Below are positions 26,663 through 61,082 of a stretch of DNA of 64,000 nt, piece after piece. The DNA comes from an uncultured Dehalococcoidales bacterium (GTDB taxonomy: Bacteria > Chloroflexota > Dehalococcoidia > Dehalococcoidales > CAYYQY01). The position numbers were made by a program, and so were the translations under genes. The stretch lies in contig CAYYQY010000003.1 in NCBI GenBank assembly GCA_964473905.1, forward strand, positions 20,546 to 84,545, given 5' to 3'. Positions within the stretch are counted from its first letter, which is position 1; every line of letters starts with the position of its first letter. The notes beneath the pieces are model-generated. The model worked only from the letters and a program-made list of their open reading frames with translations, did not search any database and was not told the DNA's origin.

Positions 26663-27834
26663 GCGGTTTTAAACTGATAAGTACTGATGCCGGGAGCGGA
26701 GCGCGTGCCGGTGAAATACGTACCCTGCATGGTACGGTGCCGACGCCGGCATTTATGCCGGTAGGCAGCCAGGCTACGGTAAAGGCGGTATCGCCCGACG
26801 AGCTTGAGGATATCGGGGCAGGCATGATACTGGCCAATACCTATCATCTGTATTTGAGGCCGGGGATGGATGTGGTTGAAAAAATGGGCGGGTTACATAA
26901 GTTCATGGGCTGGGATAGAGCCATCCTGACTGATAGTGGCGGTTATCAGATATTCAGTCTGGCCAGGCTACGGAAAATAAACGATGACGGCGTCGTTTTC
27001 CGTTCGCATATTGATGGCAGCGAGCACTTTATTACCCCTGAGCTTGACATAAAGCTACAGGAGGCACTCGGTGCCGATATTATTATGGCGCTGGACGAGT
27101 GCCCGGCCAACGATGATAGCCTGGACAAAGTGGCGGAGGCTATGCACCGCACTCACTTGTGGGCAGAGAGATGTCTTAAGGCCAAGAAGCGGAGTGACCA
27201 GGAGCTGTACGCTATTGTGCAGGGGGGCGTATTCCCCGAGCTTCGCCGCCGTTCCGTGGCATATCTTAAGTCACTGGACTTTCCCGGGTACGCCATCGGT
27301 GGCCTGAGCCTGGGCGAACCGAAAAAGGTTACCCTCTCCATTGTTGAAGAGACGGTGAAAATGCTTCCCGAAGCCAGGACACGCTATCTCATGGGGGTGG
27401 GTTCGCCGGAGGATATTGTTGAGGGTGTAGCCAGGGGGTGCGATATATTTGACTGTGCTTTACCCACCAGGGTAGCCCGGAACGGCGCCTTCTTCGCCCG
27501 TGATGGCAGACATAATATCCGAAATGCTGTATATAGAAGGATAGAAGAGCCCATGGTGGATGGTTGTAATTGCTATACCTGCCGACACTTCTCCGCAGCA
27601 TATGTACATCATCTGTTTGCCTGTGAAGAGCTGCTGGGCTACCGGTTGATGACTATTCATAACCTGAGTTTTATGAATAACCTGGTAAGCGAGATAAGAG
27701 CCTCGATATTGAATGGCGGCTTCAAATCTTTCCGGGAAGGGTTTTTAGCGGAATACCGGCCTACTGATGAGCAGGTGCGGCTTAATCAGAAGCAGAAATG
27801 GCTGAAGTCACGCCACTCGGAATATTCGGAATAG
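26659..27834 (+). CDS. tgt: Queuine tRNA-ribosyltransferase (tRNA-guanine transglycosylase)
   Basis: 391 aa. LTDSGGYQ and the zinc site CNCYTCRHFSAAYVHHL. ATGA overlap with the upstream gene. Confidence 0.95.
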   Translation: MSGFKLISTDAGSGARAGEIRTLHGTVPTPAFMPVGSQATVKAVSPDELEDIGAGMILANTYHLYLRPGMDVVEKMGGLHKFMGWDRAILTDSGGYQIFSLARLRKINDDGVVFRSHIDGSEHFITPELDIKLQEALGADIIMALDECPANDDSLDKVAEAMHRTHLWAERCLKAKKRSDQELYAIVQGGVFPELRRRSVAYLKSLDFPGYAIGGLSLGEPKKVTLSIVEETVKMLPEARTRYLMGVGSPEDIVEGVARGCDIFDCALPTRVARNGAFFARDGRHNIRNAVYRRIEEPMVDGCNCYTCRHFSAAYVHHLFACEELLGYRLMTIHNLSFMNNLVSEIRASILNGGFKSFREGFLAEYRPTDEQVRLNQKQKWLKSRHSEYSE

Positions 27835-27870
27835 ACCACTGATAAAAGATGTCCCTGACTCAAAATCTGA

Positions 27871-28104
27871 CTACACGGTAGCGGGTTCTATCTTTACTCC
27901 CTTGGACGTTGCCCAGTCCAGGACACCGTTAATGGCAGTGCTATCCCCCTCAAGCTCGACTTCTATCCAGCCGCCGGACTCGCTCATGTTGGCCTGCCGG
28001 ATGTTGGTTTGCAAGGCAAAATCCTGCCCTATGCTATAGATAATCGGTTCAGCAGCCACTTCATCGTTAAAGGTCATTATTATACGCAATTTACTCATTT
28101 TCAT
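27871..28104 (-). CDS. Stand-alone NIL-domain protein (MetN C-terminal-like ligand-binding fold)
   Basis: 77 aa. Similar by eye to the N-terminal half of the NIL-ferredoxin at 33511-33921 (..EPIIYSIGQDF.. versus ..RPIVYRLVKDF..). Last gene of the operon. Confidence 0.6.
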   Translation of the reverse strand: MKMSKLRIIMTFNDEVAAEPIIYSIGQDFALQTNIRQANMSESGGWIEVELEGDSTAINGVLDWATSKGVKIEPATV

Positions 28105-28110
28105 TCCCTC

Positions 28111-29085
28111 TTACGATATAATAATAGCGCTTTCCAGACGCTTAACCGTAGCTTCGGCCTCTTCTACCATAGTATCGATAATCTCTCTAACAGAGGGGAT
28201 ATTGTGTATCAGTCCGACGGTCTCACCGGCGGAGATGACGCCTTTATTGATGTTGCCCTCCTCCAGTGCCTGTTTACCTCTGAGCCCGGTTATCGTGGGC
28301 AGCAGATCTTCCAGCGTAGCCCCCTTTTCCTCCATGCGCAGTACGTTGAGCGATAGCTCTGTTCTCAGCACCCGCTCCGGATTATTAAAGGTGCGGTTTA
28401 TCATTATCGTGTCTTTTTCCGTAGCCTGAATTAGCCACTCCTTGATTCTGGGATGAGCTGTGCATTCCTGGCTGGCCAGAAAGCGGGTGCCCAGCATCAC
28501 CCCATCGGCACCCAGGGCCAGGGCAGCCGTGAGGCCTTTACCATCGGCGATGCCCCCACCGGCAATAACCGGGATTTTAACTGCAGCTGCCGCCAGCGGA
28601 ATCTGGACGAGGGATGTAATTTCTTCCATGCCGGGGTTGCCGCCCGCCTCAAAGCCGACGATGGTTACCGCATCTACCCCCAATCTTTCCGCAGTAAGGG
28701 CATCCTTCACCCGGGCGCACTTGTGCATTGTAGTTGCCCCGGCGTCCTTAAGCATCTTGATGTAAGGTTGCGGATTTCTGCCGGAGGTCTCAATTATGCT
28801 GACGCCGGCCTCTATCGCGATAGCCAGGTATTTTTCATGATGCACGGGTCTGAAAGTTGGCAGAAGGGTAATATTGACGGCGAATGGATTGGCGGTCAGG
28901 CTCTGTGTCTTTTTTATACCCTCCCGAAAATCTTCCGCGGTGCCATAATTGGCTGAGGAAAGAATACCCAGACCGCCGGCATTGGATACGGCCGCTGCCA
29001 GTTCGGAATTGGCGAGCCACAGCATGGCTCCCTGGATTATCGGGTATTTTATACCGAGCATTTCCGTTATTCTGGTTTTAAACAT
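28111..29085 (-). CDS. FMN-dependent TIM-barrel oxidoreductase of the COG2070 / nitronate monooxygenase (NPD, FabK-like) family
   Basis: 324 aa. LGIKYPIIQGAMLWLANSELAAAVSNAGGLGIL N-terminal signature, and IPVIAGGGIADG. Confidence 0.8.
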   Translation of the reverse strand: MFKTRITEMLGIKYPIIQGAMLWLANSELAAAVSNAGGLGILSSANYGTAEDFREGIKKTQSLTANPFAVNITLLPTFRPVHHEKYLAIAIEAGVSIIETSGRNPQPYIKMLKDAGATTMHKCARVKDALTAERLGVDAVTIVGFEAGGNPGMEEITSLVQIPLAAAAVKIPVIAGGGIADGKGLTAALALGADGVMLGTRFLASQECTAHPRIKEWLIQATEKDTIMINRTFNNPERVLRTELSLNVLRMEEKGATLEDLLPTITGLRGKQALEEGNINKGVISAGETVGLIHNIPSVREIIDTMVEEAEATVKRLESAIIIS

Positions 29086-29092
29086 ATATCTC

Positions 29093-29368
29093 TTAACCTC
29101 CGCCTATCAGTGGTATAAGATCAATCTCATCCCCGTCCTTAACGGGCATATCCAGCTCGTCGGGAAAGGTATCTTTTTCATTCAAAAAGATACAGACCCA
29201 CTCCAGCAGTTCACCCTTACTATCAAACAGTTCGTTTTTAATGTCAGGCAGCTTTTCGGTAAGCTCCTGGATGCATTTACTCACGGTGTTACCGTTTACT
29301 TCCACTATTGAACATTCGTTGGGTAGTCCCTTTAGAAAATAGCGGTTGATATTAATCTTGGTACTCAT
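29093..29368 (-). CDS. ThiS/MoaD-family ubiquitin-like sulfur-carrier protein
   Basis: 91 aa ending ...DEIDLIPLIGGG (C-terminal Gly-Gly). Overlaps the upstream E1-like gene by 17 nt. Confidence 0.75.
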   Translation of the reverse strand: MSTKININRYFLKGLPNECSIVEVNGNTVSKCIQELTEKLPDIKNELFDSKGELLEWVCIFLNEKDTFPDELDMPVKDGDEIDLIPLIGGG

Positions 29369-30125
29369 TGTTCGCTTCCATCCCCAGTTGTTTACAGTGC
29401 TTGCAACCGGGGTCTCTTTTTACGGTAAACTCTCTGAATTGTAAATTAAGCCCATCGTAGACCAGTAATTTATTGGTCAGCAGTTTGCCGGTACCCAGGA
29501 TATACTTTATTACCTCCGTAGCCTGGATACTACCCATGATGGCTGCTGTAACGCCAACTATAGGTATTGTTGCGGCGGGTATAGCGCCGCGATATATGCA
29601 TTTCAGGCAGGCAGTTTTACCTGGGATTATGGTCGTAGCCCGGCCTTCAAAGCCATATACAGCGCCATGGAAGAAGGGTATGCCTTTGGATACGGCGGTC
29701 TTATTGAGAATAAATCTTGTCTTCAGGTTATCAACGGCATCCACTATTAAGTCACAACCATCCGTAAGCCCGAAGATATTGTCTTCGGTAATAAGCTCAT
29801 CCCTGGCTTCTACTGTCACCTCCGGGTTAATCAGGTTCAGCTTATCTACGGCTAAGTCAACCTTCATCCTGCCTATATCCTTATCCCGGTACAGTACCTG
29901 TCTATTAAGGTTGCTGAGCTCCACGCGGCCGCTATCAACCACTCGCAGCGTACCCACTCCCGCTGCTGCCAGGTAGGTGCATACTGGCGCGCCAATCCCG
30001 CCGGCGCCGGCGATGAAGACCTTGGCCCGCTTGAGTTTCTCCTGGCCGGCCTCACCGAAGCCTTCAATCATAATCTGACGGCTGTATCTTTCCCGTTCAC
30101 TTCCGGTAAGCATAGCGTTATTCAC
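29352..30125 (-). CDS. ThiF/MoeB/HesA-family adenylyltransferase (E1-like)
   Basis: 257 aa. RYSRQIMIEGFG, nucleotide loop IAGAGGIGAP, and two CxxC pairs (CLKC, CKHC) as in the zinc site of MoeB/ThiF. No rhodanese domain. Confidence 0.85.
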   Translation of the reverse strand: MNNAMLTGSERERYSRQIMIEGFGEAGQEKLKRAKVFIAGAGGIGAPVCTYLAAAGVGTLRVVDSGRVELSNLNRQVLYRDKDIGRMKVDLAVDKLNLINPEVTVEARDELITEDNIFGLTDGCDLIVDAVDNLKTRFILNKTAVSKGIPFFHGAVYGFEGRATTIIPGKTACLKCIYRGAIPAATIPIVGVTAAIMGSIQATEVIKYILGTGKLLTNKLLVYDGLNLQFREFTVKRDPGCKHCKQLGMEANNEYQD

Positions 30126-30136
30126 TCCCCGGTGCC

Positions 30137-30937
30137 TTAATCACTCTGGCTTATCTTTCCAGTTAATACCCTTGAAGGGTGACTGTATATGTTCATTCTG
30201 CTGCCGCGGACAAAACCGATTAGCGTTATACCCCGGTCGGCGGCTATCTTTACCCCCAGGGTAGTCGGTGCCGATTTGGATATGAGCACGGGGATATTTC
30301 TTCTGGCTATCTTGAGTATTATCTCCGAGGATACGCGGCCACTCGTAATCATTATACGGTCGTCCGTCGTTAAGCCGATGGCAAGACACTCGCCGATTAC
30401 CTTGTCAATGGCATTATGCCGGCCGATGTCCTCGCTGAACAGGAGAATATTTTGTCTGTCGCTCAGGGCGGCACTATGGACGCCGCCTGTTTTCCTGAAT
30501 ATCCGTGAGCGCTGCACAAAGTCATCCATAATTGTATAAATCTCAGCCGGTGATATTTGTAAGCCGGACTTTATCTCTCCGGGACTGTCGCCATTGGCAC
30601 TGGCGTAAGGCTGGAGAGTCCTGCCGCTGCTGGATGCAATAAGCTGAGGGGATGATAAATCAGGGGCTATAACCATGTTATTTCTGCTGGTTATACGGGC
30701 AAAGCCTCGCTCACTATCGATAGTGATACTATCTATATCGTCTTTACTTTTTATAAGCCCCTCTGAAACGAGGAAACCCAAGGCCAGATAGTCCAGTTTG
30801 GCCGGGGAACACAGCAGTGTTACGAGCTCCCGGTTGTCAAGTATTATGGTAATGGGTAGCTCTACGGTTACCGTATCCTTGAAGTCGCTCCTTCGCTGCT
30901 CGGTGATGCGTACTATGGGGACTTCATCTATCTCCAT
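30137..30937 (-). CDS. fdhD: FdhD/NarQ-family protein lacking the canonical Cys-pair loop
   Basis: 266 aa. LDYLALGFLVSEGLI, TGGVHSAAL and EDIGRHNAIDK match the FdhD family. Where E. coli FdhD has GRTGCGVCG, this protein has GRTLQPYAS. Confidence 0.8.
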   Translation of the reverse strand: MEIDEVPIVRITEQRRSDFKDTVTVELPITIILDNRELVTLLCSPAKLDYLALGFLVSEGLIKSKDDIDSITIDSERGFARITSRNNMVIAPDLSSPQLIASSSGRTLQPYASANGDSPGEIKSGLQISPAEIYTIMDDFVQRSRIFRKTGGVHSAALSDRQNILLFSEDIGRHNAIDKVIGECLAIGLTTDDRIMITSGRVSSEIILKIARRNIPVLISKSAPTTLGVKIAADRGITLIGFVRGSRMNIYSHPSRVLTGKISQSD

Positions 30938-31034
30938 AATTATATTTCCTGACCGGTTTGCCGGTTTTGGTCAGCCGAAAAAAGCTCTAATGTACAACTG
31001 TACTTATACTGCACTATATCTATTTAATTGTCTA

Positions 31035-31820
31035 TTACTTTCCAGACAGTTTATTTATGGCTACTTCGGCCGCTCTTTTGCCGGAAAGCAGCATACCGCC
31101 AAAAACGGGGCCCATTCTGGGTGAACCAAAAACGGCGTTGGCTGCCATACCGCTTACTATCAAGCCGGGATATGCTTCTTTAGTGTTATCCAGTATCTCT
31201 CTCTCCCCGATTTCAGCCCACATTGATTTTTCGCCGGCGATTTTGCCCGTTTCCAGTAATAGCTTGGCGCCGAGTTTTTCGCTCACTATATGACATACTT
31301 CGCTGGCATGTCCCGTGGCATCTATCACCGCCTTGGCGCGTATTGAGAGCGGGTCTACATGCAGTTTGGCTATTTGCGTGGCGGTCCAGTTTAAAACGAG
31401 GCCGGTTACCCGGTCATTCTCCCGTATCATTACGTCCTCAACGCTTATCAGGTTAAATATCTTCGCACCGGCTCTTATCGTGCGGTAGCATATAGCCGAG
31501 ACAGCTTCCAGGGCGTCCGCAGTGAAGTAGCCCGGTTGATACAACTTGGCGGCAATGTCAAACTCGTCCAGAATATGCTTACCCTCCTGCTGTACCACGA
31601 TATGATTGAACATCATACCGCCGCCGGGCATACCCCCACCGACACGAAGTTGCCTTTCAAAAATAACGGTTTTTAAGCCGGCTTTAGCCAGGAAATACGC
31701 GGCAGTCATACCGGACGGGCCGGCGCCGACTATAGCCACGTCAACCTGCATGGCGTCTAAGAAGTCTTTCATAAAGGTCTCAACAATTGCCTTGGATATG
31801 GTAATCTCGTCTAGTTCCAT
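31035..31820 (-). CDS. thi4: Thi4-type thiamine thiazole synthase
   Basis: 261 aa. [20 protein letters not shown] dinucleotide fold, [20 protein letters not shown], and a C-terminal [21 protein letters not shown] pattern typical of archaeal/eukaryotic Thi4. Confidence 0.85.
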
Positions 31821-31845
31821 GGTTCCCCTTTCCTAAAGCCTTTTC

Positions 31846-32763
31846 CTAGGCTATTTCTAACATTCTATCTACGGCGTGTTTTGCCCTGAGACGTATATCA
31901 GCCGGTACTTTAATCTCGTATTTCATGTCCTTTAGCGCCAGTAGCACCTTCTCCAGAGTGATAAGTTTCATGTCTGGGCAAATGGCCTGCACCGAGGCGG
32001 GAATAAATATTTTATCCGGGTTCTCCTTTATTAGCCGGTATATTATACCAATCTCCGTGCCGATGATTATTTCTCGCGCTTCTGTTTCCCTGGCAAACCG
32101 GCACATGCCGCTGGTGCTTAGGGCCTCATCGGCGAGGGCGATAACTTCGGGCTTGCACTCCGGATGCACAATTACTTTGGCTCGCGGATTTGCTAGTTTC
32201 GCCTTCAAAATATCTTCGGGGCTAATACGGGCATGGGTAGGGCAGAAACCGGGCCAGAGGGAAATATTCTTTCTACCGGTCTTTAAGGCGACATACTGCC
32301 CCAGGTACTGGTCGGGAATAAATAGAATCTCCCTGTCGCCCAGGCTTTTTACAATATTCACCGCATTCGCCGACGTACAGCAGATGTCTGACTCGGCTTT
32401 AACCTCTGCTGACGAGTTCACGTAGCAGACAACGGTGGCTACCGGCATCTCTGCTTTCCGTTTATTTAAGCTGTCGGCGGTAATCATATCTGCCATGGGG
32501 CAACCGGAACGGGCATCGGGCAGCAGGACTTTTTTGTCCGGGCACAGGATGGAAGCTGTCTCTGCCATAAAACGGACACCGCAGAAAACAATCGTCTCCG
32601 CATTGGTTCTGGCTGCCCGCTGGCTTAGCTCCAGTGAATCACCCACCAGGTCGGCTATATCCTGCACTTCGCCCGGCTGATAGTTGTGGGCAAGTATGAT
32701 GGCATGCCTCCGCTCTTTGAGGTAGAGTATATTTTCCTTAATTTCGCTAATATTCAAAACCAT
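31846..32763 (-). CDS. nadA: Quinolinate synthase
   Basis: 305 aa. ILAHNYQPGEVQDIAD, FCGVRFMAET and VIVHPEC are typical NadA blocks. Confidence 0.9.
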   Translation of the reverse strand: MVLNISEIKENILYLKERRHAIILAHNYQPGEVQDIADLVGDSLELSQRAARTNAETIVFCGVRFMAETASILCPDKKVLLPDARSGCPMADMITADSLNKRKAEMPVATVVCYVNSSAEVKAESDICCTSANAVNIVKSLGDREILFIPDQYLGQYVALKTGRKNISLWPGFCPTHARISPEDILKAKLANPRAKVIVHPECKPEVIALADEALSTSGMCRFARETEAREIIIGTEIGIIYRLIKENPDKIFIPASVQAICPDMKLITLEKVLLALKDMKYEIKVPADIRLRAKHAVDRMLEIA

Positions 32764-32783
32764 GATATTTAAACCCTGCCGTT

Positions 32784-33506
32784 TCAGGTCCCGGATATTA
32801 CGACATCTCCCCAGACTCCCATACTGTCATCCTTGATTATGACGGTACCGGTTATACCGTCAATACACCTCGCAAATCCTATCCCTTTAGGGATATCACC
32901 GGACTCCTTAACCATGTTGCCTGTGGCCGTAGCCACGGCATCGGCCAGGCTGGCGGATGCGGAAATAACTATTACGGCATCCGCCCGACCGTAGCTCAGC
33001 GAGTGGCCTACCGTACCGGAAGAAGTACAGATGCCCAGAGGAGTGTCCCGGCCTTCAATTTCCAGTGCTATTTTCCCGCTTAAAGGAGAGTTACCGGCAT
33101 AGATGCCGATTAGCCGCTTTCGCGAGGATTTAAGATATATATCCCCGCCGTTCTCAATAATTACCTCCTCTGCTGAGTTAATCAGTCTACTACCGACATA
33201 CTCGGCTATTGCTCCGGCTACCGAGGCCATAGGGCCTACTCCAGCTTTTCTTGATGCATCCATCATCGGTCTCAGGATAGGAGCTATGTCTCCGGTACCC
33301 GGCAGCGGTTCCAGTGAAGTTAGAAACGGCGGATGCCGTTCTATGTAGCTCTCCAGGGTGTCACGGTATTTTATTACCAGATTCAGCGCCTCTTCCTCCA
33401 GGTTAGCGGAGGCACGGATATATAAATCAGTCTCCTTTATCACCACGTTGAAACTGGTTAAATCCTCGCCTTTAATCCAGTGACGGTAGGTCTTGGGTTC
33501 GTACAT
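32784..33506 (-). CDS. UPF0280 / COG2122 ApbE-like protein (family of Methanosarcina MA1715)
   Basis: 240 aa. MYEPKTYRHWIKGEDLTSFNVVIKETDLYIRA is a UPF0280-type N-terminus. Sits directly after the COG1900 and NIL-ferredoxin genes. Confidence 0.7.
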   Translation of the reverse strand: MYEPKTYRHWIKGEDLTSFNVVIKETDLYIRASANLEEEALNLVIKYRDTLESYIERHPPFLTSLEPLPGTGDIAPILRPMMDASRKAGVGPMASVAGAIAEYVGSRLINSAEEVIIENGGDIYLKSSRKRLIGIYAGNSPLSGKIALEIEGRDTPLGICTSSGTVGHSLSYGRADAVIVISASASLADAVATATGNMVKESGDIPKGIGFARCIDGITGTVIIKDDSMGVWGDVVISGT

Positions 33507-33510
33507 CAGG

Positions 33511-33921
33511 TTAGAAGTGTAGCTCCATAGCCCGTGGCGGGCAGGCCGTTATGCACTGTCCGCAGGCTATGCACTTATCATCTTCAAAGTTTATTTTTTT
33601 GGTCACCGGGTCAAGGACAAAGGCTCCGGTGGGACATATGGTAACACAGGCGCCACAGTGGGTACATCTGTCTTCGTTACGAACAACGTCCTGGCTCAGC
33701 GATTGAATCTTGATTCCGCTTTTGGTCAGGTAATTGATACCTTTATCGTAGTCCTCTTGCCTGCCTCTTATCTCCAGTACCATCAAGCCTTCCTCTTCCG
33801 GGGTGAAAAAGGCCTTCAGGATATTGAATTCAAGGTCAAAGTCCTTGACGAGCCGGTATACTATGGGCCGGTCTACGATGCGTTTCGGGAAACGGAGGAC
33901 TATCTTCTTTGCTACAGCCAT
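33511..33921 (-). CDS. NIL domain fused to a 2x[4Fe-4S] ferredoxin (family of MA1822)
   Basis: 136 aa. N-terminal NIL-like domain, then CTHCGACVTICP and CIACGQCITACP. Confidence 0.8.
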   Translation of the reverse strand: MAVAKKIVLRFPKRIVDRPIVYRLVKDFDLEFNILKAFFTPEEEGLMVLEIRGRQEDYDKGINYLTKSGIKIQSLSQDVVRNEDRCTHCGACVTICPTGAFVLDPVTKKINFEDDKCIACGQCITACPPRAMELHF

Positions 33922-33939
33922 GGCTAATGCCTTTGTGTT

Positions 33940-35148
33940 TTATTCTTCTATAGGGCGTTCGTTAAGAGGTTTACAGCTTATGCCTGACTCAATGCCGGGT
34001 AGCGGTGCTACCGGTTCACTGAGCAGGAACTCTCCGTTCTCTATCCAGGTCTTAAGCGTGCCGGCTATTTCCAGCGCCCGGGAGTAGCTGGATAGAGAAG
34101 CCGTGGGCACGTCTTTACCCTGGATATTTACCCTACCGCTTCTAAGCTGAGCGTAGCTTACCTCAGCTACTATATCCGGCTTCAAATTGGGGTAAGCATC
34201 TGAGTAATCTATAACCGCGGCCATGATTTCGCTATCGCTTACCGCTGTGTACCTGAGGATTTCTTCAGAGAGTATAGGTATAGGTACGCCGATACCCACG
34301 GTTAAAGTGCAGCCATAGCCCAGCATGCTGGTGCCCACCAGCCAGCGCGGGTTCATATGCTTCAGGTCACCGATTACGGCCAGGGTGCCGGCCCCTCTAC
34401 TGGGTACGCCGTTATCGGTTCGCGGTGCGTTCGGGCTGTGCTGGGTGCCCTGCCAGGCAACATAACCTGTCCCGCCGCCCAGAAATATCTTGGTGCCGAT
34501 ACCGATAGTCTTATAATAGGGGTCATTCAGCAGCGGTGAGAGCTGCCCGGCGGTAGCGTAATTGATGTTTCCCAGATTAGGCTTAAGTACCCCCAGATAG
34601 GTATATATTGTCCGCTTGGATAGGTTGGCCGCCACATTATAGTTCTGGTAGGCATTTCTTATATTGAAAAGCACCGCTTCATTCAGGTCCTTGATATTAA
34701 TCAGGGTTTCAAGACGCTTTCTGGGATAGCAATCGGTGCCGTAAGCGGTGGCTACCAGGCTGATATCCTTACCGGCTACCAGCTCCTCAATCACGTGGCC
34801 GCCACCATAGTTGAATTCACCGGGATGGACTCTATTCCTGGGGTCATCATCGGGCAGCGCGCCGGCGCCGACAAATAAATCGGCTGCGGCCAATCCGGTG
34901 TAGGCTGGTACATCGTTGAGATATACCCTGCCGCCGCCGAGCTTGATTCTCGGTTTTGAGTGGCCGATGTTGAAGTAGGCACCTGACGAGCACATAGGAC
35001 CAAGGGTGCCCGTGGTAACCACGTCAACTTCCCGGGCTACCTTTTGTAGCCCCTTCTCTCTGACCAGGTCAATTATTTCCTCGGCAGTGACGACGACTGC
35101 CTTGCCCAGTTTTATCTTTTCGTTTATTTCGCCAATCGTTCTTGTCAT
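33940..35148 (-). CDS. COG1900 (DUF39) homocysteine-biosynthesis protein (family of MA1821), without CBS domains
   Basis: 402 aa. TIGEINEKIKLGKAVVVTAEEI N-terminus and overall COG1900 pattern. Genomic pairing with the NIL-ferredoxin. Confidence 0.75.
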   Translation of the reverse strand: MTRTIGEINEKIKLGKAVVVTAEEIIDLVREKGLQKVAREVDVVTTGTLGPMCSSGAYFNIGHSKPRIKLGGGRVYLNDVPAYTGLAAADLFVGAGALPDDDPRNRVHPGEFNYGGGHVIEELVAGKDISLVATAYGTDCYPRKRLETLINIKDLNEAVLFNIRNAYQNYNVAANLSKRTIYTYLGVLKPNLGNINYATAGQLSPLLNDPYYKTIGIGTKIFLGGGTGYVAWQGTQHSPNAPRTDNGVPSRGAGTLAVIGDLKHMNPRWLVGTSMLGYGCTLTVGIGVPIPILSEEILRYTAVSDSEIMAAVIDYSDAYPNLKPDIVAEVSYAQLRSGRVNIQGKDVPTASLSSYSRALEIAGTLKTWIENGEFLLSEPVAPLPGIESGISCKPLNERPIEE

Positions 35149-35156
35149 TGTACTAG

Positions 35157-35185
35157 ATGATAGTATGTAAGCCTGTAATTGTCAA
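35157..35185 (-). promoter_or_regulatory. Sigma-70-type promoter of the COG1900 sulfur operon, placed so the mRNA would be leaderless or nearly so
   Basis: The minus strand reads TTGACA (35185-35180), a 17-nt spacer, TATCAT (35162-35157), then 8 nt (ctagtaca) and the ATG at 35148. No Shine-Dalgarno. Confidence 0.55.
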
Positions 35186-35340
35186 TTTGGCCATCTTGCC
35201 AGTATCCTGCTTATACGGCATCTATAATATTAGCTGTGACATGTGGCCTGCCGATAAAGGTAAATGAAAAAGATAATAATCTATAGATTGAGACATGAAG
35301 AGTATTAGACAGGAACACCTAAGGCCATCAACTTTTTGGA

Positions 35341-35766
35341 TTACTCGCCGAATGCAGTAACCAAAGGGTGCTGTTCCCGGTACTCAATAAGCTCAATCAT
35401 GACGCCAAAGGTATCCTTGGGGTGGAAGGTAGCCGTCCGGGCATCGCCAATCTGCTCGCCGCCGATTTGCCGGATACCCTTTGCCTTCATTTCGGTTATG
35501 GCCGCATCCAGGTCGGGCACCTTGAAGGATATCATGGATACACCCTCTCCCTTCTGCTCCAGGAGCCGCTCGGCATTGCCGCCCGGCGTTAGCGGTGCAC
35601 ACAGGTTAATACAAGATGGTAAAGGGCCTACGGTTTGCTTAATATCAAAATTCTTGTTATCCCAGGACTGTGAAAACTCAATACCCATTACGTCGCTAAA
35701 AAGCCCTATCGCTTTCGCCAGGTCTCTTACAAAAATGGTAATGTGGTCAATCCTATCGATTTTCAC
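35341..35766 (-). CDS. VOC/glyoxalase-family protein (methylmalonyl-CoA epimerase-like)
   Basis: 141 aa. IDHITIFVRDLAKAIGLFSDVMG VOC motif. GTG start behind GGGAGG. Confidence 0.7.
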   Translation of the reverse strand: MKIDRIDHITIFVRDLAKAIGLFSDVMGIEFSQSWDNKNFDIKQTVGPLPSCINLCAPLTPGGNAERLLEQKGEGVSMISFKVPDLDAAITEMKAKGIRQIGGEQIGDARTATFHPKDTFGVMIELIEYREQHPLVTAFGE

Positions 35767-35840
35767 GGTGTCACCTCCCGAATTATTCTATAGCTACAGG
35801 CGCATCATTGTCAATTTGACGTACCCGAGACGGGCGACGG

Positions 35841-35870
35841 TTGCCGAACAGTCTCCATATGAGCTATAAT
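35841..35870 (+). promoter_or_regulatory. Sigma-70-type promoter of aspS
   Basis: TTGCCG (35841-35846), an 18-nt spacer, then TATAAT (35865-35870). The track's ORF start at 35841 is this -35 box. Confidence 0.45.
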
Positions 35871-35900
35871 TTAAAGCTGATACTTTTTCTGGAGGTAGTC

Positions 35901-40021: not shown

Positions 40022-42055
40022 ATGGACGTAGTCAAGACCGTCTGTAATATGTGTGATGTTAGGTGCGGTATAGATGCCTATGTTGAGAACGGGCAGATAG
40101 TAAAAATTGATGGTATGCCGGAGCACCCGCATAACTCCCTCTGTGTTAAGGCATATGCTATTCCGGAGCTTGTTCATTCCAAAGACCGGTTGACCAGCCC
40201 CATGCTTAAGGTAAACGGAGAGTTCAAGGATATTACCTGGGACGAGGCGTTTACTGTTATCGCTGATAATTTGAACAGAGTTAAGGAGAAGTACGGGCCG
40301 CAGGCGCTCAATGTCCATGTTGGTAATGCCTATATCGGTACCCAGACAGAGAAAATAGTAAGGCGTTTTAGCGATCTTTTTGGCACGCCCAACTACTCTA
40401 CGGGTGGTTCGTACTGCTTTCTGGCCAGTACTCTGGGGCACATGATAACATGCGGGGCACACGTGCTCCCGGATTTTGAGGGTAATCCCAGGTGCATGGT
40501 TATGTGGGCTAGCAACCGTACTCAGAGCAGTCCTCCCTACGCCGAGGTGATTAGCCGCTGGGTAAGTGATAAAACCAAGTTAATAGTGATCGATCCCAGA
40601 ATTACCAAACGCGCTAAAGAGGCGGATATATATGCTCAAATCAGGCCGGGAACGGATTGTGCTCTGGCACTCGGTATGCTGAATGTTATTATCGCTGAAG
40701 AGCTTTATGATAAACAGTTTGTAGAGCAGTGGACTGTTGGCTTTGAACAGTTAGCTCAACATGTAAAGACATACTCGCCCGAGAAGGTTGAGACGATAAC
40801 GTGGGTACCGGCAGGCACTATCCGGGATATGGCCCGCCTGTACGCCACGAGTAAGCCGGCCTGCATCTCGCTGGGTATTCCCACCAATCACAGCACTAAC
40901 GGGGTTCAAACCGTCAGGGCTATTACCATACTGATGGCTATTACGGGTAACATTGATGTAGCCGGTGGCGATATTATTACACCATCACTGTGGCAGTCAA
41001 GCATCCGGGTTAAAGGCAGCATACCTGATTTAAGCACTTCGCTCGGTGCTGACTACCCTATATTCAGGAGATATGCGGTAGAGTCAACAGCTTCGCCTCT
41101 TACCGAGACAATACTCAGCGAAGTACCTTACCCGGTAAAAGCCTTGATTTTTGCTGGCTGTAACCCACTAATGACCATGCCGAATACTAACAAGGTAAGA
41201 CGTGCCTTTGAAAAGCTGGATTTCATGGCGGTTATAGACATATTTATGACGGATACGGCCAGGATGGCTGACCTGGTACTGCCTGGAACGAGCTTTGCGG
41301 AAAGGGAGGACTTAAGGCACTGGCGTGCGGATGGGCTAAGCCTGGTAGTGGCGACCAATAAGGTGGTGGAACCGCCTGGAAACTGCATGGAAGACTGGAA
41401 AATATGGGCGGCGCTGGCCGAAAAGATGGGTTATGGTGAGTATTTTCCCTGGAAGACGACCGTAGATCTGCTTGAATACCTGCTTAAACCGTCCGGTATT
41501 ACGCTGGAGCAGCTCAGGGCAAACCCGGGTGGTGTCTACTATGCCGGGAAAAAATATAAAAAATATCTGGAGGAAGGATTTGCTACACCGTCTAAAAAGG
41601 TAGAGCTGTATTCCGAACTGATGGAGCAGCACGGGTATGAACCACTACCATCATTTAAAGAGCCGGTGGAAAGTCCGGTAAGCCAGCCTGATTTAGCCGC
41701 GAGCTATCCTTTAATAATGATTACCGGTACCCGGACAGCGGGTTATCTCCACTCTGAGTACCGCAATTTGCCCAGCCTGCGTAGGCTTATGCCGGAGCCG
41801 ATAATTGAAATAAATACGGATACGGCGCATAATCTTAATATAACGGATGGAGACCGGGTTAAAGTTGAATCAAGAAGGGGAAGCGTTGAGTTAAAGGCCA
41901 GAGTGCATAATGATATACATCCTGAGGTGGTATCCATGCAGCACGGGTGGAGTGAGGCTAACGCTAATGTGTTGACCAATGATGAGGTCCGTGACCCGGT
42001 ATCGGGCTTCCCCGCGTTTAAGGGTGTTTTGTGCAGAGTGGTTAAGGTAGGCTAA
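40022..42055 (+). CDS. Cytoplasmic molybdopterin (Mo/W-bisPGD) oxidoreductase, stand-alone catalytic subunit, substrate unknown
   Basis: 677 aa. N-terminal [4Fe-4S] motif CNMCDVRC...(x24)...C (Cys8, Cys11, Cys15, Cys41). No twin-arginine signal. The candidate metal ligand is Cys132 in GGSYCFLAS. AGGAGG lies upstream. Confidence 0.85.
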   Translation: MDVVKTVCNMCDVRCGIDAYVENGQIVKIDGMPEHPHNSLCVKAYAIPELVHSKDRLTSPMLKVNGEFKDITWDEAFTVIADNLNRVKEKYGPQALNVHVGNAYIGTQTEKIVRRFSDLFGTPNYSTGGSYCFLASTLGHMITCGAHVLPDFEGNPRCMVMWASNRTQSSPPYAEVISRWVSDKTKLIVIDPRITKRAKEADIYAQIRPGTDCALALGMLNVIIAEELYDKQFVEQWTVGFEQLAQHVKTYSPEKVETITWVPAGTIRDMARLYATSKPACISLGIPTNHSTNGVQTVRAITILMAITGNIDVAGGDIITPSLWQSSIRVKGSIPDLSTSLGADYPIFRRYAVESTASPLTETILSEVPYPVKALIFAGCNPLMTMPNTNKVRRAFEKLDFMAVIDIFMTDTARMADLVLPGTSFAEREDLRHWRADGLSLVVATNKVVEPPGNCMEDWKIWAALAEKMGYGEYFPWKTTVDLLEYLLKPSGITLEQLRANPGGVYYAGKKYKKYLEEGFATPSKKVELYSELMEQHGYEPLPSFKEPVESPVSQPDLAASYPLIMITGTRTAGYLHSEYRNLPSLRRLMPEPIIEINTDTAHNLNITDGDRVKVESRRGSVELKARVHNDIHPEVVSMQHGWSEANANVLTNDEVRDPVSGFPAFKGVLCRVVKVG

Positions 42056-46281: not shown

Positions 46282-47793
46282 TTAAAAACACAGTTTACCC
46301 GGGTTCATAATGTTATTCGGGTCACTCTTATTCTTGAGTTTCTTCAGATATTCGGCGTAAGTCCCGGAGCGACTGTACATAATTTCAGCCCAGGGTCCGT
46401 AGGGTCTATCAAAGAAACCACCCATATCAACCACTACTTCGCTGGCCTCTTTGTAGAGAGCCTTAACCGCTTGACTTTCCGCCGCGTCGTCAAGGTTGCA
46501 GTGAAAGTCAAATTCGCAGTATATGGTTCTCGCCCGCTCTATGGGCAGCAGATAGCCGCCGATATCACTGGTCGGGTAGTTGTATTTACAGGCTACGTCG
46601 TAGATAGCTGCCTCCAGTAAGCCTACCGTGTCCGGGCTCGAGTGGAACATAAGCCCGTGGCATGAGCCTTTATAACCGAATCGCTTCTGCATCCGGCCAG
46701 GCAGTATCACTTCCTCCTTGATGATATTGCTCAGTCCGGTTATAGCACCTACGGTATTCTTTAGCTCGCAACCACTTTCAACCGCTACGTCCTTCAGGTC
46801 CAGTTCCTGGTAGGCTAGTTTCTCATCGGCGCGTCTTGCCCAGCCGGTGAGGCAAACAATTATCGTCCAGGGTGGCAGGTTACCTCTGATGCTTTCAAAC
46901 TGCATGACCTGCTCTTCTGTCCAGGGGTTGGCGCCTCTATTCCCGACGTAAGTTCCCTTTTTCAGCTTATCGTCCTCACCCGGTATGTCTACCACCAGGG
47001 CGGCCAGGTCAAAGCTGTTAAAGGCAAAACATTCCAGTCCCAGTTCCTTGCGCTCAATACGCTGTATGATATGGGTCGCCTGGCTTACTGTCTCCGCCGG
47101 TATAAAGATGACTTTTTGGGCGGTCGGTAGTGGCAGGAGCCTTATTGCCATCTGTGTCACGATGCCGAAGGTGCCCTGAGAGCCCATGTAAAGGCGATAA
47201 AAGTCAAATGCCGGTCCGTCCGGGGCCATAGCACGTGATTTCTGTGTTGGCGGATGACCTATCGTGAACAGCTCGCCGGTAGGCATTAACATGTCGTAGG
47301 TACTGAAAAGCTCATTACCGAAGACGAAATCAGGAGCGGTAACCACCGGGTTCCTCTCTATATAGTCCACCAGCACCGAAGCCGAAGGCGGACTGGTAAG
47401 CGGTGCGGCTACTCTCAGGCCGTATTTTTCCAGTTCCGGTTGAAGCTGGGCATAGGTTACTCCGGCTTCAATCAGGGCGTGCCAGTTCCGCTCGTCTATA
47501 TAGGTAATCTTGTTGAGCCTCTGCAGGTTTACCAGGATACCGCCGATACTGGGAACGGCACCGCCGTGAAAGTCTGTCCCCGAGCTATAGGGGACAACCG
47601 GCATCAGGAGTTTGTTGGCCAGTCTGACTATTTCCTGGACCTCCGCTACAGTACCCGGCGTGACTACATAGTTAGGCCTTGTCTGCGGGACAAAACTCTG
47701 GTCGCGTGAATATTTATCCAGGACTAAGGGGTCATCGGAGGCATTATCTTTGCCTACGATAGCTGCTAATTCCTCAAGGATGCTATCACTCAC
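46282..47793 (-). CDS. FAD-linked oxidase/dehydrogenase subunit, type B, copy 1 (GlcD/D-lactate dehydrogenase-like)
   Basis: 503 aa. FAD_binding_4-type loop VVPYSSGTDFHGGAVP, and a C-terminal DPNNIMNPGKLCF. Confidence 0.8.
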   Translation of the reverse strand: MSDSILEELAAIVGKDNASDDPLVLDKYSRDQSFVPQTRPNYVVTPGTVAEVQEIVRLANKLLMPVVPYSSGTDFHGGAVPSIGGILVNLQRLNKITYIDERNWHALIEAGVTYAQLQPELEKYGLRVAAPLTSPPSASVLVDYIERNPVVTAPDFVFGNELFSTYDMLMPTGELFTIGHPPTQKSRAMAPDGPAFDFYRLYMGSQGTFGIVTQMAIRLLPLPTAQKVIFIPAETVSQATHIIQRIERKELGLECFAFNSFDLAALVVDIPGEDDKLKKGTYVGNRGANPWTEEQVMQFESIRGNLPPWTIIVCLTGWARRADEKLAYQELDLKDVAVESGCELKNTVGAITGLSNIIKEEVILPGRMQKRFGYKGSCHGLMFHSSPDTVGLLEAAIYDVACKYNYPTSDIGGYLLPIERARTIYCEFDFHCNLDDAAESQAVKALYKEASEVVVDMGGFFDRPYGPWAEIMYSRSGTYAEYLKKLKNKSDPNNIMNPGKLCF

Positions 47794-47860
47794 TTCTCTA
47801 CCCCCTTTCTTGAGTTATGCTGATAGTAAACAGCACTCACCAGTATTTGTTTCTTGGACA

Positions 47861-49393
47861 TTATTGCTCCAGCCTGACAAGCTTCCCCGGGTTCATGGTG
47901 TCGTTGGGGTCAAAGACGTTCTTTATCTGGGTTACCCAGTGCTTGGCGTTGGGACCTACCCTTGGGGAGTATATGGTAAGCACGGGTTCCATATAGTAGT
48001 ATCCCAGGTCAAGCAGGTCTTGCTTGGGTGTGCGGACAAAGCCGTCTATATTCATATCGCGGGCTGAACTCGCTTCCTCGTAATCAGACTGGTCAAAGAC
48101 CGTATCGTCTTCAAACAGCGCGTAATACCCCCGCTCAAAGATGTAAACCCAGGGGGTCTCCTCGTCGAACATGTAGTGGGAATGTCTCATGACTATATCC
48201 TGAGACCGCTCGTAAAACTCCCGGTGGTTGTCTATGTGACCGCAGCCGAGTTTGATAGAAGAAAAGCTGCCCCGGCGCTGGAAACGGCTGCCGCAGCCGT
48301 CGCGGAAGGCATCGCCATGCCAGGTTGCCATCTCTTCATTAAGGTCATCTCTGAACTTGCCGCCGGTCTCCTTGACGATATCCCGGAGAACGTTCTCTTC
48401 GTGGTCCAACTGCCTTGTCGACGAGATACCGGCGTTGATGACGTAAATCATGTGTCGGGGGAAGAACCCCTCGTGCCATCTCTTTTCCGCAAGCTCTTCG
48501 GTTTGCTGTGTCATACCGGTAACCCAACCATTTGAAGCCCCGTTAAGGTGGGTGCCGATGCCGGAGTGCGCGATTTCGTACATGGCTTCATTCATGGGCT
48601 CAATATCGGGGTATTCTACGTAGTAAATCCTGTGGTTGGCAGGTAACGGCGGCCTGTTGTAAACGGTCTCCTGTGGCCATTCGCCTCCGGCCCAGGGATG
48701 CAGCTTCATGGTGGCCTCTACGATAACCGCCATACCGCCATGATTGCAGAACTCAAAAATACCCTTGAGGTCAGGCCCAGGTCCCTGGCACCAGAAGTTG
48801 CCGCAGGCGGGTATGGTAGCCGAACCGGTCTTCAGAATATCACCGTTGGGTAAAACCAGGGTGAGGTTGGCTATTGAGCGCAGACCGACACCGTAGGCCA
48901 GCGAACTCTGCCAGGTACCGCTGTTAATAATGTTGGATAAGAGTCCGCAGCTACCCGGGGCTAACGGGGTGCCCCCGTTCCACAGCCCTCGCTTCATGGT
49001 TTCAGCCTGAATACGGGCGAAACTAACGTAGGGCTGAATGGTAGCCGTCATGGTATCTTCGTTGATTTCAAGAATCTTGTCCATTCGTTTCAGGTCAAGA
49101 GAAATGGTGCCCGGTTCACTCGGTATGCAGAGGGATACCATGTTAGCACCGGTACTTATGGGGATTACCTTTAGCCCGTACCTGTTAGCGATGCGGACTA
49201 CCCCTTGCACCTCCTCCGTGCTTGCCGGTAATACCACCAGGTCCGGAATAGCGGAGGGGTCTTGCTTGTATCTCTTCATAATTCCGGGGAAGGCCCCGTC
49301 CTTGGAGTATGTCTGGCGAACCATGGGGTCATCGCTGATAAAATCAGGGCCGACCACCGCGGCTATTGCTTGATAAACATGAGGTTCAATCAA
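47861..49393 (-). CDS. FAD-linked oxidase/dehydrogenase subunit, type A, copy 1
   Basis: 510 aa. PCMH-type FAD domain with a divergent loop VIPISTGANMVSLCIP, and a C-terminal DPNDTMNPGKL. TTG start behind AAGGAGGTG. Confidence 0.75.
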   Translation of the reverse strand: MIEPHVYQAIAAVVGPDFISDDPMVRQTYSKDGAFPGIMKRYKQDPSAIPDLVVLPASTEEVQGVVRIANRYGLKVIPISTGANMVSLCIPSEPGTISLDLKRMDKILEINEDTMTATIQPYVSFARIQAETMKRGLWNGGTPLAPGSCGLLSNIINSGTWQSSLAYGVGLRSIANLTLVLPNGDILKTGSATIPACGNFWCQGPGPDLKGIFEFCNHGGMAVIVEATMKLHPWAGGEWPQETVYNRPPLPANHRIYYVEYPDIEPMNEAMYEIAHSGIGTHLNGASNGWVTGMTQQTEELAEKRWHEGFFPRHMIYVINAGISSTRQLDHEENVLRDIVKETGGKFRDDLNEEMATWHGDAFRDGCGSRFQRRGSFSSIKLGCGHIDNHREFYERSQDIVMRHSHYMFDEETPWVYIFERGYYALFEDDTVFDQSDYEEASSARDMNIDGFVRTPKQDLLDLGYYYMEPVLTIYSPRVGPNAKHWVTQIKNVFDPNDTMNPGKLVRLEQ

Positions 49394-49410
49394 TTCAACT
49401 CACCTCCTTT

Positions 49411-50646: not shown

Positions 50647-50882
50647 ACCTTATCCTCCTCATATCTTGAGAAGTGGAAGCGGAGTAGCATGTACTGGCAA
50701 AATACGAATACGTGATACTATCTCTTCCTTATCCATGTCATTCTACTTGCCGGAAAATCTGTAAGCCTAGCCCGGACAAAAAATTCCGAGTGTCATGCCC
50801 GGTATCGTAAGTATAAGGTCTGAATATATACAGGCTGCCGTATTACCGGACAGCATAAATGACATAGCTCTCGCCGTTAATA

Positions 50883-50919
50883 GAAGAGTAAGGTTCTTTT
50901 TTATAGAACCTTACTCTTC
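50883..50919 (-). terminator. Perfect 15-bp hairpin just downstream of the CCG-protein gene, copy 2 (possible terminator separating the two modules)
   Basis: GAAGAGTAAGGTTCT (50883-50897), 7-nt loop, AGAACCTTACTCTTC (50905-50919). Starts 10 nt after the stop codon at 50930. No clear U-tract. Confidence 0.35.
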
Positions 50920-50929
50920 GCTATCTTTA

Positions 50930-52171: not shown

Positions 52172-52191
52172 TTAGACTCCTCCTTTTGAGA

Positions 52192-53715: not shown

Positions 53716-53716
53716 C

Positions 53717-60405: not shown

Positions 60406-60478
60406 GCCCCTGTAGCTCAGGTGGATAGAGCACCAGCCTCCGGAGCTGGTTGCGAGCGTTCGAGTCGCTCCAGGGGCA
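60406..60478 (+). tRNA. tRNA-Arg (anticodon CCG), CCA not encoded
   Basis: Acceptor GCCCCTG/CAGGGGC, D-arm GCTC..GAGC, anticodon stem CCAGC/GCTGG with loop CTCCGGA, T-arm GAGCG-TTCGAGT-CGCTC, discriminator A. Confidence 0.9.
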
Positions 60479-60506
60479 TTTTCTATATGGTAAGCAGGAG
60501 GCAAAG

Positions 60507-61082
60507 GTGACAGAGAAAAGTGAGCTTATTGAGATCAGGTGGCATGGTAGAGGCGGTCAGGGAGGAGTAACGTCTGCGGAGTTGGTGGCACAGGCTGCCA
60601 TAAGTGAAGGACGTTACGGTCAGGCTTTTCCCAGTTTTGGTCCGGAAAGAAGGGGTGCCCCGGTACTGGCTTTTATCCGGGTGAGTAACCAGCCTATCCG
60701 GTTGCGGATGGAGATTACGGAGCCTGACGTGATTGTAGTACTCGATCCGGGGCTGCTGCCTATAGTCAATGTGACTTCCGGTCTCAAACCCGGAGGTATA
60801 GCGGTGGTTAACACCAGGAAATCTCCCGAGGAAATCAGAGAAGAATTTAAAATAGACTGGCAAATAGCTACCGTAAATGCTACCAGAATTGCCCGCGAGC
60901 TGCTGGGAGTCCCTATTACTAATACCACCATGATCGGTGCCCTGGTCAGGGTTACCGGATTGGTCAACATGGAATCACTGGTAGCGCCGGTGGAGCACCG
61001 TTTTGGCCGACTGGCGGAACGGAATATTAATGCTATGAAAAGGGCTTACGAGGAAACCATAGTAAAGGAGCGTAAGAAGTGA
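60507..61082 (+). CDS. porC: Pyruvate/2-oxoacid:ferredoxin oxidoreductase, gamma subunit
   Basis: IEIRWHGRGGQGGVTSAELVA signature. I place the start at GTG 60507 (AGGAGG at 60495-60500). The track's start at 60450 lies inside the tRNA-Arg gene. Confidence 0.88.
   Translation: MTEKSELIEIRWHGRGGQGGVTSAELVAQAAISEGRYGQAFPSFGPERRGAPVLAFIRVSNQPIRLRMEITEPDVIVVLDPGLLPIVNVTSGLKPGGIAVVNTRKSPEEIREEFKIDWQIATVNATRIARELLGVPITNTTMIGALVRVTGLVNMESLVAPVEHRFGRLAERNINAMKRAYEETIVKERKK

Follow-up and report, generated by a model that had tools for sequence, protein, structure and literature searches.

A gene for an FdhD/NarQ-family protein lies in a 64,000-nucleotide stretch (the window) of contig CAYYQY010000003.1, which belongs to an uncultured Dehalococcoidales bacterium (assembly GCA_964473905.1, positions 20,546 to 84,545 of the forward strand). 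This fdhD is the sixth of ten co-directional genes, which encode, in order, HcyBio, a NIL-ferredoxin, UPF0280/AbpE_bact, NadA, Thi4, FdhD, an E1 adenylyltransferase, a ubiquitin-like (Ubl) carrier, an NMO-like protein and a NIL protein (Table 1). The genes of the array are separated by -17 to 25 nt, save for a gap of 97 nt before fdhD. The gap between fdhD and the E1 gene is 11 nt, and the E1 and Ubl genes overlap by 17 nt. A first-pass annotation, made from the sequence alone, had singled out the protein as an FdhD that lacks the sulfur-relay cysteine pair and sits next to a possible alternative sulfur source.

Table 1. Features of the window, in window coordinates, and gene contexts of fdhD in the window (L063) and in its relatives
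Feature	Position	Strand	Basis or remark
HcyBio, head of the array	33940-35148	-	PF01837, E 3e-152
NIL domain plus 2x[4Fe-4S] ferredoxin	33511-33921	-	NIL + Fer4
UPF0280/AbpE_bact	32784-33506	-	PRK04334
NadA quinolinate synthase	31846-32763	-	PF02445
Thi4 thiazole synthase, upstream of FdhD	31035-31820	-	PF01946, E 5.5e-80; TIGR00292, 323.7 bits
FdhD/NarQ-family protein, 266 aa, ATG start	30137-30937	-	PF02634, TIGR00129, PDB matches, AlphaFold/Foldseek
Predicted-disordered loop region, FdhD residues 92-118	30584-30664	-	pLDDT < 50, translation, alignments
TGGVHSAAL motif (E. coli TGCTHAAAW), FdhD residues 150-158	30464-30490	-	alignment with E. coli
EDIGRHNAIDK motif (E. coli EDVGRHVALDK), FdhD residues 169-179	30401-30433	-	alignment with E. 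coli
MoeB/ThiF-type E1 adenylyltransferase, 257 aa (253 aa with the called start), no rhodanese domain	29352-30125	-	PF00899, E 6.9e-75
MoaD/ThiS/SAMP-like ubiquitin-fold sulfur carrier, 91 aa, GGG end	29093-29368	-	PF02597, E 7.7e-09
NMO/FabK-like FMN protein	28111-29085	-	PF03060, E 1.9e-59
NIL-domain protein, 77 aa, tail of the array	27871-28104	-	PF09383, E 3.2e-12
Acetylene-hydratase-like Mo/W-bisPGD enzyme, cytoplasmic, 677 aa, flanked by trigger factor and clpP	40022-42055	+	PDB 2e7z, 2.1e-102
Context in the window (L063): Thi4-FdhD-E1-Ubl-NMO-NIL			acetylene-hydratase-like enzyme present at tig/clpP site
Context in L067: NadA-FdhD-Ubl-NMO-NIL			acetylene-hydratase-like enzyme present at tig/clpP site
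Context in L074: Thi4-FdhD-Ubl-NMO-NIL			acetylene-hydratase-like enzyme present at tig/clpP site
Context in L073: Thi4-MOSC-FdhD-Ubl-NMO-NIL			tig/clpP site not covered
Context in L075: NadA-MOSC-FdhD-CutA1-E1, then contig end			acetylene-hydratase-like enzyme present at tig/clpP site
Context in L078: Rrf2-MOSC-FdhD-CutA1-E1-Ubl-TusA-DsrE-IscS-IscU			tig/clpP site not covered
Context in L069: Thi4-FdhD (loop deleted)-NMO-NIL			acetylene-hydratase-like enzyme absent at tig/clpP site
Contexts in L072 and L077: ArsP-FdhD-(CutA1)-NIL			enzyme absent at tig/clpP site in L072; site not covered in L077
Context in L076: SBF-FdhD-CDF-NadA			tig/clpP site not covered

The open reading frame (ORF) encodes a full-length FdhD/NarQ protein with the two-domain FdhD fold. 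Its match to the PF02634 FdhD-NarQ profile (E 7.6e-76; 255.4 bits against a cut-off of 27.2) covers profile positions 2-236 of 237, which bears out the first-pass reading of an FdhD match along the whole length with both TGGVHSAAL and EDIGRHNAIDK in place. The curated cut-off of TIGR00129 (fdhD_narQ) is exceeded, at 201.6 bits over 140.9, and the score for the narrower NCBIfam equivalog NF001943 falls short (212.8 bits; cut-off 269). A sequence search of the PDB returned two FdhD structures only, 2pw9 from Desulfotalea (6.5e-30) and 4pde from E. coli (2.1e-23). An AlphaFold model of the monomer, built on 49 homologs, has a mean predicted local distance difference test score (pLDDT) of 76 and a predicted template modelling score (pTM) of 0.75. 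Compared with the PDB by Foldseek, it gave five matches at E <= 0.001, namely the four chains of 2pw9 and 4pde, with E-values from 1e-14 to 2e-15 and a probability of 1.0. Seven contigs carry a gene for the identical protein; the four listed come from four different samples and from the records of four sources, and they carry the same neighbours. Since the identical protein recurs on contigs from different samples, the sequence is real and is not an assembly error.

The residues that define the family are kept. Conservation was scored in a representative set, the best 150 of 8,690 matches clustered at 50% identity and nearest to the window FdhD. His154 of TGGVHSAAL is the invariant family histidine, present in 149 of the 150 representatives and in every member of the clade alignment. 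Within EDIGRHNAIDK, Arg173 is found in 150/150 and His174 in 140/150 representatives, and the motif as a whole is invariant in the clade. The S199-G-R201 element is likewise present, with arginine at position 201 in 150/150. Together with the C-terminal SKSAPT and GFxRG, these motifs align with their counterparts in E. coli FdhD, whose structure was solved with GDP bound, and all are invariant in the clade, where 53 columns do not vary across 49 members, each 52-62% identical to the window protein.

The loop is where the protein departs from the E. coli model, in which Cys121 and Cys124 (C-x-x-C) carry the persulfide. Residues 100-113 of the window FdhD (30599-30640, minus strand) translate to IASSSGRTLQPYAS, and Ser104 occupies the column that holds cysteine in most relatives (family register T-S-G-C-G). 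The loop was aligned with HMMER against the PDB chains and with MAFFT against 120 close homologs, 61 GTDB loci and the 150 cluster representatives, about 330 homologs in all. None of these alignments, whether to E. coli, to Desulfotalea or to the homologs, placed a cysteine in the loop, and the absence of a cysteine pair noted at first sight withstands careful alignment. The earlier register, set by eye with GRT on GRT, does not quite coincide with that of the family (SSS-G on SGC-G), the difference being a few residues; either one gives the same outcome. Residues 92-118 of the predicted model fall below pLDDT 50, so the loop is predicted to be disordered; its cysteine-bearing counterpart in E. 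coli FdhD is disordered too (PMC10609526). The protein contains two cysteines in total, Cys43 and Cys184, both isolated and outside the loop, as had been annotated, and both invariant in the clade alignment. Cys43 (LLCSP; 30809-30811, minus strand) is cysteine in 132/150 representatives whatever the state of their loop, and Cys184 (30386-30388, minus strand) is cysteine in 76/150. Because the loop has no cysteine, the E. coli-type persulfide relay from IscS through Cys121/Cys124 to the cofactor cannot run through it. The first-pass annotation had said the same of the canonical shuttle; the conclusion is sound, and it is not new.

What did not stand is the treatment of such a protein as unusual. 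A loop segment with no cysteine at all (hereafter Cys-less) is found in 54 of the 150 representatives (36%). The canonical loop column holds cysteine in 86, glycine in 25, a gap in 14 and serine in 9, plus other residues, so that it is not cysteine in 64 (43%). The CXXC motif occurs in just 2 of the 150. Among the 120 closest homologs, all from Dehalococcoidia wherever the source names the organism, 39 are Cys-less, most have a single cysteine (TSGCGRG), and two (P0036 and P0069) have lost the loop entirely. Parsimony on a loop-masked neighbor-joining tree of these 120, a rough tree, requires at least five changes of the loop-cysteine state. The literature contains the same picture. Schwanhold et al. 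(2018) showed that the CXXC of the FdhD family is not conserved and that their group III includes cysteine-free members, that formate dehydrogenase (FDH) is still active with the E. coli C121A/C124A and R. capsulatus FdsC C104A/C107A variants, and that binding of the cofactor bis-MGD (bis-molybdopterin guanine dinucleotide) is a trait common to FdhD homologs (PMC6239281). Magalon (2023) described the FdhD of M. maripaludis, which lacks the loop cysteines and keeps the nucleotide-binding motif; linked Cys-less cases to organisms that have a minimal Fe-S machinery or lack cysteine desulfurase; and proposed a different path for sulfuration, with FdhD acting in cofactor insertion (PMC10609526). 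The window FdhD has no loop cysteine and retains the nucleotide-binding motif, and by motif, as distinct from phylogenetic placement, it is of this group III or M. maripaludis type. It is a member of an already recognised Cys-less branch, and the Cys-less state is common and arose repeatedly. Cys-less homologs are thus both frequent and on record, which the first-pass annotation had named as grounds for abandoning its reading; a lack of relation to ThiS/ThiF genes, which it had added, holds outside the clade and only partly inside it.

Comparison with known systems places the protein more closely. E. coli FdhD (4pde), an IscS-dependent sulfurtransferase and bis-MGD chaperone for FDHs, belongs to the same Pfam and TIGRFAM family, has the same fold, shares TGxxHxAA, EDxGRHxxxDK, SxR and GFxxxxR, and has its disordered loop in the same place. 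E. coli FdhD has C121-x-x-C124 in the loop, where the window protein carries Ser104 and lacks any cysteine; the latter also has Cys43 in the place of an E. coli alanine, and its gene has no FDH, IscS or fdhE nearby. The M. maripaludis-type group III proteins (PMC6239281, PMC10609526) resemble it in their cysteine-free loop, in the retained nucleotide-binding motif and in an anaerobic, sulfide-using host, and an alternative sulfuration route is presumed for them. Group III proteins accompany known FDHs, whereas no FDH is visible beside the window fdhD, whose neighbours are HcyBio, NadA, Thi4 and E1/Ubl. In R. capsulatus FdsC, cofactor binding and delivery are essential and the loop cysteines are not, the C104A/C107A variant being functional. 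On the other hand, FdsC keeps the CXXC, and its gene is part of the operon (fds) for an NAD-dependent FDH. The putative FdhD of Desulfotalea psychrophila (2pw9), the closest solved structure by sequence, keeps one loop cysteine. Within the class, the single-cysteine FdhDs (TSGCGRG) match the window protein at 52-57% identity and likewise have NadA in the neighbourhood. Their genes are preceded by an overlapping MOSC gene and, in L004 and L071, have a cysteine desulfurase gene upstream, neither of which was found in the window. In cultured Dehalogenimonas, of the same class, fdhD is paired with a MOSC gene, as in relatives of the window FdhD. The Dehalogenimonas gene lies in a cluster with fdnGHI, moaA/C, moeA and mobA/B, whereas the window gene lies in a sulfur-assimilation cluster without MOSC (PMC13390414).

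The window FdhD is probably a functional chaperone of the Mo/W-bispyranopterin guanine dinucleotide (bisPGD) cofactor that does not use a loop persulfide; its cofactor binding we infer. This reading follows from the retained core motifs, from fusions to Mo-cofactor proteins, from FDH neighbours in Atribacteria and from the Dehalogenimonas cluster. In the subfamily, FdhD is fused to MobA (P0137, P0146, P0151), to MobB (P0254, with a Cys-less loop) and to MOSC (P0065 and P0121, the latter with a Cys-less loop), and MOSC genes overlap Cys-less fdhD genes in L073, L075 and L078. Two Atribacteria loci (L025, L027) have a Cys-less FdhD near FDH catalytic subunits that bear the Cys-His and Arg signatures CARLCHS and PLRGQSNVQG, and most relatives of the window FdhD outside Dehalococcoidia adjoin Mo-bisPGD enzymes. 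In mechanistic terms, an FdhD dimer would bind Mo/W-bisPGD, shield the cofactor and hand it over to the apo-enzyme with no loop persulfide involved. Should the client need a terminal sulfido ligand, the sulfur would come by another route, which in relatives may involve a translationally coupled or fused MOSC partner. Free sulfide is a further candidate source, and it would suit a host whose genes beside fdhD include members of families (HcyBio, Thi4) to which annotation ascribes a direct use of sulfide. Among the alternatives offered at first pass, the cofactor chaperone without a loop-cysteine role in sulfur transfer is the best supported, and a special sulfuration linked to E1/Ubl finds no support apart from an adjacency of genes that is restricted to the clade.

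Several observations weigh against a cofactor chaperone. The template modelling score of the model to 2pw9 and 4pde is just 0.42-0.50, so the relative placement of the two domains differs or is poorly modelled, and model confidence is low at both conserved motifs (residues 153-157 and 170-172). Pfam scans of the large ORFs of the window (>=130 aa) found no FDH and no moa, mob or moe gene. The only molybdoenzyme of the window resembles acetylene hydratase, and enzymes of that class are not known to require FdhD; FdhD is kept in L069 and L072 although the molybdoenzyme is absent at the syntenic site. To our knowledge, no naturally Cys-less FdhD has been biochemically characterised. Moreover, the constant neighbours of fdhD are sulfur-assimilation genes and NadA, not genes of Mo enzymes, which leaves room for another role. 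Two other partners were sought in the window. No cysteine desulfurase (Aminotran_5) occurs among its scanned ORFs, although L004, L071 and L078 encode one near fdhD, and five MOSC proteins of relatives, taken as tblastn queries, gave no match (best E 0.42). A coupling between loss of the loop cysteine and loss of the MOSC partner was considered and is ruled out by L073, L075, L078 and the P0121 fusion, each of which combines MOSC with a Cys-less loop.

The molybdoenzyme lies 9 kb from fdhD and could be its client, as could an enzyme encoded outside the window. It carries cysteine at the ligand position (SYCF) without the following histidine and the conserved arginine of FDHs, and the claim that it lacks the Cys/Sec-His signature is upheld. 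Its best PDB match is acetylene hydratase, with which it shares the aspartate after the second cluster cysteine (C8xxC11-D12) and, in ungapped register, the cysteine ligand (SYC-F against MYM-C-I). In L067, L074 and L075 the corresponding site holds orthologues of about 70% identity. As a client of FdhD it is possible at best.

An alternative account has FdhD recruited to a task other than Mo-cofactor maturation; it might, for instance, assist the surrounding cluster of sulfide-assimilation, NadA and Thi4 genes by binding a nucleotide. This account draws on the stability of the neighbourhood. No neighbour of FdhD is more constant in Dehalococcoidia than NadA, which lies next to it or at most two genes away in L004, L063, L067, L069, L070, L071, L073, L074, L075 and L076, and fdhD stays beside NadA, HcyBio, the NIL-ferredoxin and UPF0280 in L004, L063, L067, L069 and L070-L075. 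In the single-cysteine relatives L004 (7528-9684), L070 (966-3113) and L071 (9565-11705), MOSC, FdhD and NadA are encoded by overlapping genes with no E1. The proximity of FdhD and NadA also recurs outside the class, as it is seen in a sulfur island of Methanoregula (L058), where FdhD lies near NadA, IscS/IscU and PP-loop enzymes; in Bathyarchaeota (L046), a loop-deleted FdhD adjoins Thi4. A preprint reports that genes for suicide-type Thi4 cluster with those for ThiS/ThiF, HcyBio, MOSC and FdhD, and proposes supply by ThiS thiocarboxylate (10.1101/2025.09.23.678117). The lack of an FDH in the window speaks for this account as well. Against it, the most constrained residues are those held in common with E. 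coli FdhD, the fusion partners in the subfamily (MOSC, MobA, MobB) are all Mo-cofactor proteins, and the relatives outside the class mostly stand next to Mo-bisPGD enzymes. In addition, a small collinear region such as this one (aspS-tig ... tgt-alaS) can keep its gene order with no functional link between the genes. Such a recruitment is unlikely, though it is the strongest of the rivals.

Slightly less likely still is the idea that the neighbouring genes replace the persulfide, with the E1 adenylating the GG-ended carrier and the resulting thiocarboxylate, in place of an IscS persulfide, supplying the sulfido sulfur to the cofactor on the Cys-less FdhD. The two genes that follow fdhD do encode a ThiF/MoeB-type E1 and a GGG-ending ThiS/MoaD-type carrier, as first annotated. 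The best PDB match of the E1 is E. coli MoeB (1jw9, 1.1e-46), followed by ThiF (2.6e-40), and it stays below the cut-off of every NCBIfam equivalog. The carrier matches the SAMP1 and moaD_arch models below their cut-offs, and its best PDB matches are the MoaD-related 1v8c, ThiS/MoaD 4n6e and CysO 3dwg. The tight packing of the three genes and the lack of a rhodanese domain in the E1 favour the idea, as does recurrence beside Cys-less FdhDs. Both genes are found in L078, the E1 gene in L075, and the Ubl gene in L067, L073 and L074, with E1s 63-76% and Ubls 40-51% identical to those of the window and all the Ubls GG-terminated. However, in the ten Cys-less Dehalococcoidia contexts an E1 is adjacent in 3/10 and a Ubl in 5/10 (MOSC in 3/10), and neither occurs in L069, L072, L076 and L077. 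Of the seven Cys-less FdhDs from other phyla in the GTDB sample, none has an E1 in the flanking sequence stored with it, which extends to at most 8 kb. The scan of genome contigs was pattern-based and returned mostly distant relatives with just two Dehalococcoidia loci, and the close contexts came from exact-protein look-ups. Outside the class, the two loci that bear an E1, Bacillus L021 and Methanoregula L058, both have a cysteine-containing FdhD; the Methanoregula E1 is 54% identical to that of the window and is accompanied by a ThiS-family Ubl. The association of E1/Ubl with FdhD is recurrent inside the clade, and it is neither universal nor specific to Cys-less FdhD. The same array offers other clients for the carrier (a Cys-type Thi4, HcyBio), the resemblance of the E1 to MoeB also counts against the idea, and we know of no precedent for a thiocarboxylate that donates a metal sulfido ligand.

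The adjacent E1 and ubiquitin-fold carrier would belong to the same sulfur-trafficking island as fdhD. Most likely they serve molybdopterin dithiolene synthesis, in a role like that of MoeB and MoaD, or Thi4, or thiolations of another kind, rather than the donation of sulfur to FdhD. MoaE is listed in none of the Dehalococcoidia contexts read. A tracking of E1/Ubl with the acetylene-hydratase-like enzyme (4/4 contexts with the enzyme, 2/2 without) was not relied on, the sample being tiny and phylogenetically nested. In L078 (291-5848), the MOSC, FdhD, CutA1 and E1 genes overlap by 7-11 nt and 3 nt separate E1 from Ubl, with the E1 63% and the Ubl 40% identical to those of the window. In E. coli, IscS and TusA are implicated in the thiocarboxylation of MoaD. 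The L078 operon, with its MOSC and FdhD, can be read as a cofactor-sulfur module; the lack of a listed MoaE and the Cys-type Thi4 in the window array speak against this. A bolder proposal is of a dedicated module in which MOSC and CutA1 (both in relatives), FdhD, a MoeB-like E1 and a MoaD-like carrier would bring the terminal sulfur from a protein thiocarboxylate or sulfide, and not from an IscS persulfide, to Mo/W-bisPGD; alternatively, FdhD might serve the sulfide-based thiolation cluster as a whole (homocysteine, thiazole). The proposal is improbable, to about the same degree as the thiocarboxylate route to FdhD.

Finally, a decaying, functionless remnant of a formerly Cys-dependent FdhD, to which the variable and in P0036 and P0069 deleted loop, the MOSC partner missing from this genome region and the absence of the syntenic Mo enzyme in some FdhD-keeping relatives might point, is very improbable, given an intact full-length ORF, an identical protein from four independent samples, the 53 invariant columns with all core motifs kept, and the persistence of the same Cys-less state across several subclades.

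HcyBio, the NIL-ferredoxin and UPF0280 (32784-35148) are the trio for sulfide-dependent homocysteine synthesis, a set known from methanogens. Here it occurs in a Dehalococcoidia bacterium, and it is kept in every close relative read. Thi4 is named 'sulfide-dependent' by NCBIfam, yet it has a cysteine five residues past the histidine of TGH (TGHASEVCH), as have all the Dehalococcoidia copies seen. This spacing is presumably that of the active-site cysteine in suicide-type Thi4s (His200/Cys205 in yeast numbering), and the gene stands with ThiS/ThiF in the way that the preprint describes. Ubl, the NMO/FabK-like protein and the 77-aa NIL protein (27871-29368, minus strand) form a conserved triad that is also found in L067, L073 and L074; L069 has the NMO-NIL pair without Ubl. 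The NMO-like protein has a weak, sub-threshold match to ThiG (E 1.5e-4). In L069 (8232-9154), which has the loop-deleted FdhD, NadA is split into two ORFs of 95 and 212 aa, a possible frameshift or pseudogene. The Methanoregula island (L058, 3794-10912) encodes ThiS, ThiF, IscU, IscS, a PP-loop protein, FdhD with a single cysteine, a TtuA-like PP-loop protein, NadA and DUF2099.

Upstream of HcyBio lies a promoter-like site, TTGACA-17-TATCAT (35185-35157, minus strand), which is sigma-70-like and matches 11/12 consensus positions. Searches for a riboswitch or other RNA regulator (Mo-cofactor, S-adenosylmethionine, thiamine pyrophosphate), run against Rfam with gathering thresholds on the full window and with E <= 1 on 27500-35900, returned just three tRNAs elsewhere, and the ten-gene array contains no terminator-like site and no Rfam element. 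With a promoter-like site at its head and no such internal element, the array is consistent with one long transcript. Elsewhere in the window, six consecutive genes at 46282-55276 (minus strand) encode two FAD_binding_4, two CCG-domain and again two FAD_binding_4 proteins, and resemble a glycolate-oxidase/D-lactate-dehydrogenase-like set that is present twice. The TTG listed as the start of the POR gamma-subunit ORF (60450-61082) falls within a tRNA at 60406-60478 (plus strand, 64 bits), and the true start is probably further downstream.

The window FdhD adds one example to a documented class and leaves current understanding unchanged. The annotation 'formate dehydrogenase accessory sulfurtransferase' over-specifies its function, as there is no FDH in this part of the genome and no sulfur-carrying residue in the loop of the protein. 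The route by which a sulfido ligand is supplied where FdhD is Cys-less is still open (PMC10609526), and the Dehalococcoidia contexts give candidate partners for it, namely the overlapping MOSC-fdhD genes, the Cys-less MOSC-FdhD and FdhD-MobB fusions, and the L078 operon. If the dedicated module proposed above were true, it would be a concrete answer to how organisms with a Cys-less FdhD sulfurate their cofactor.

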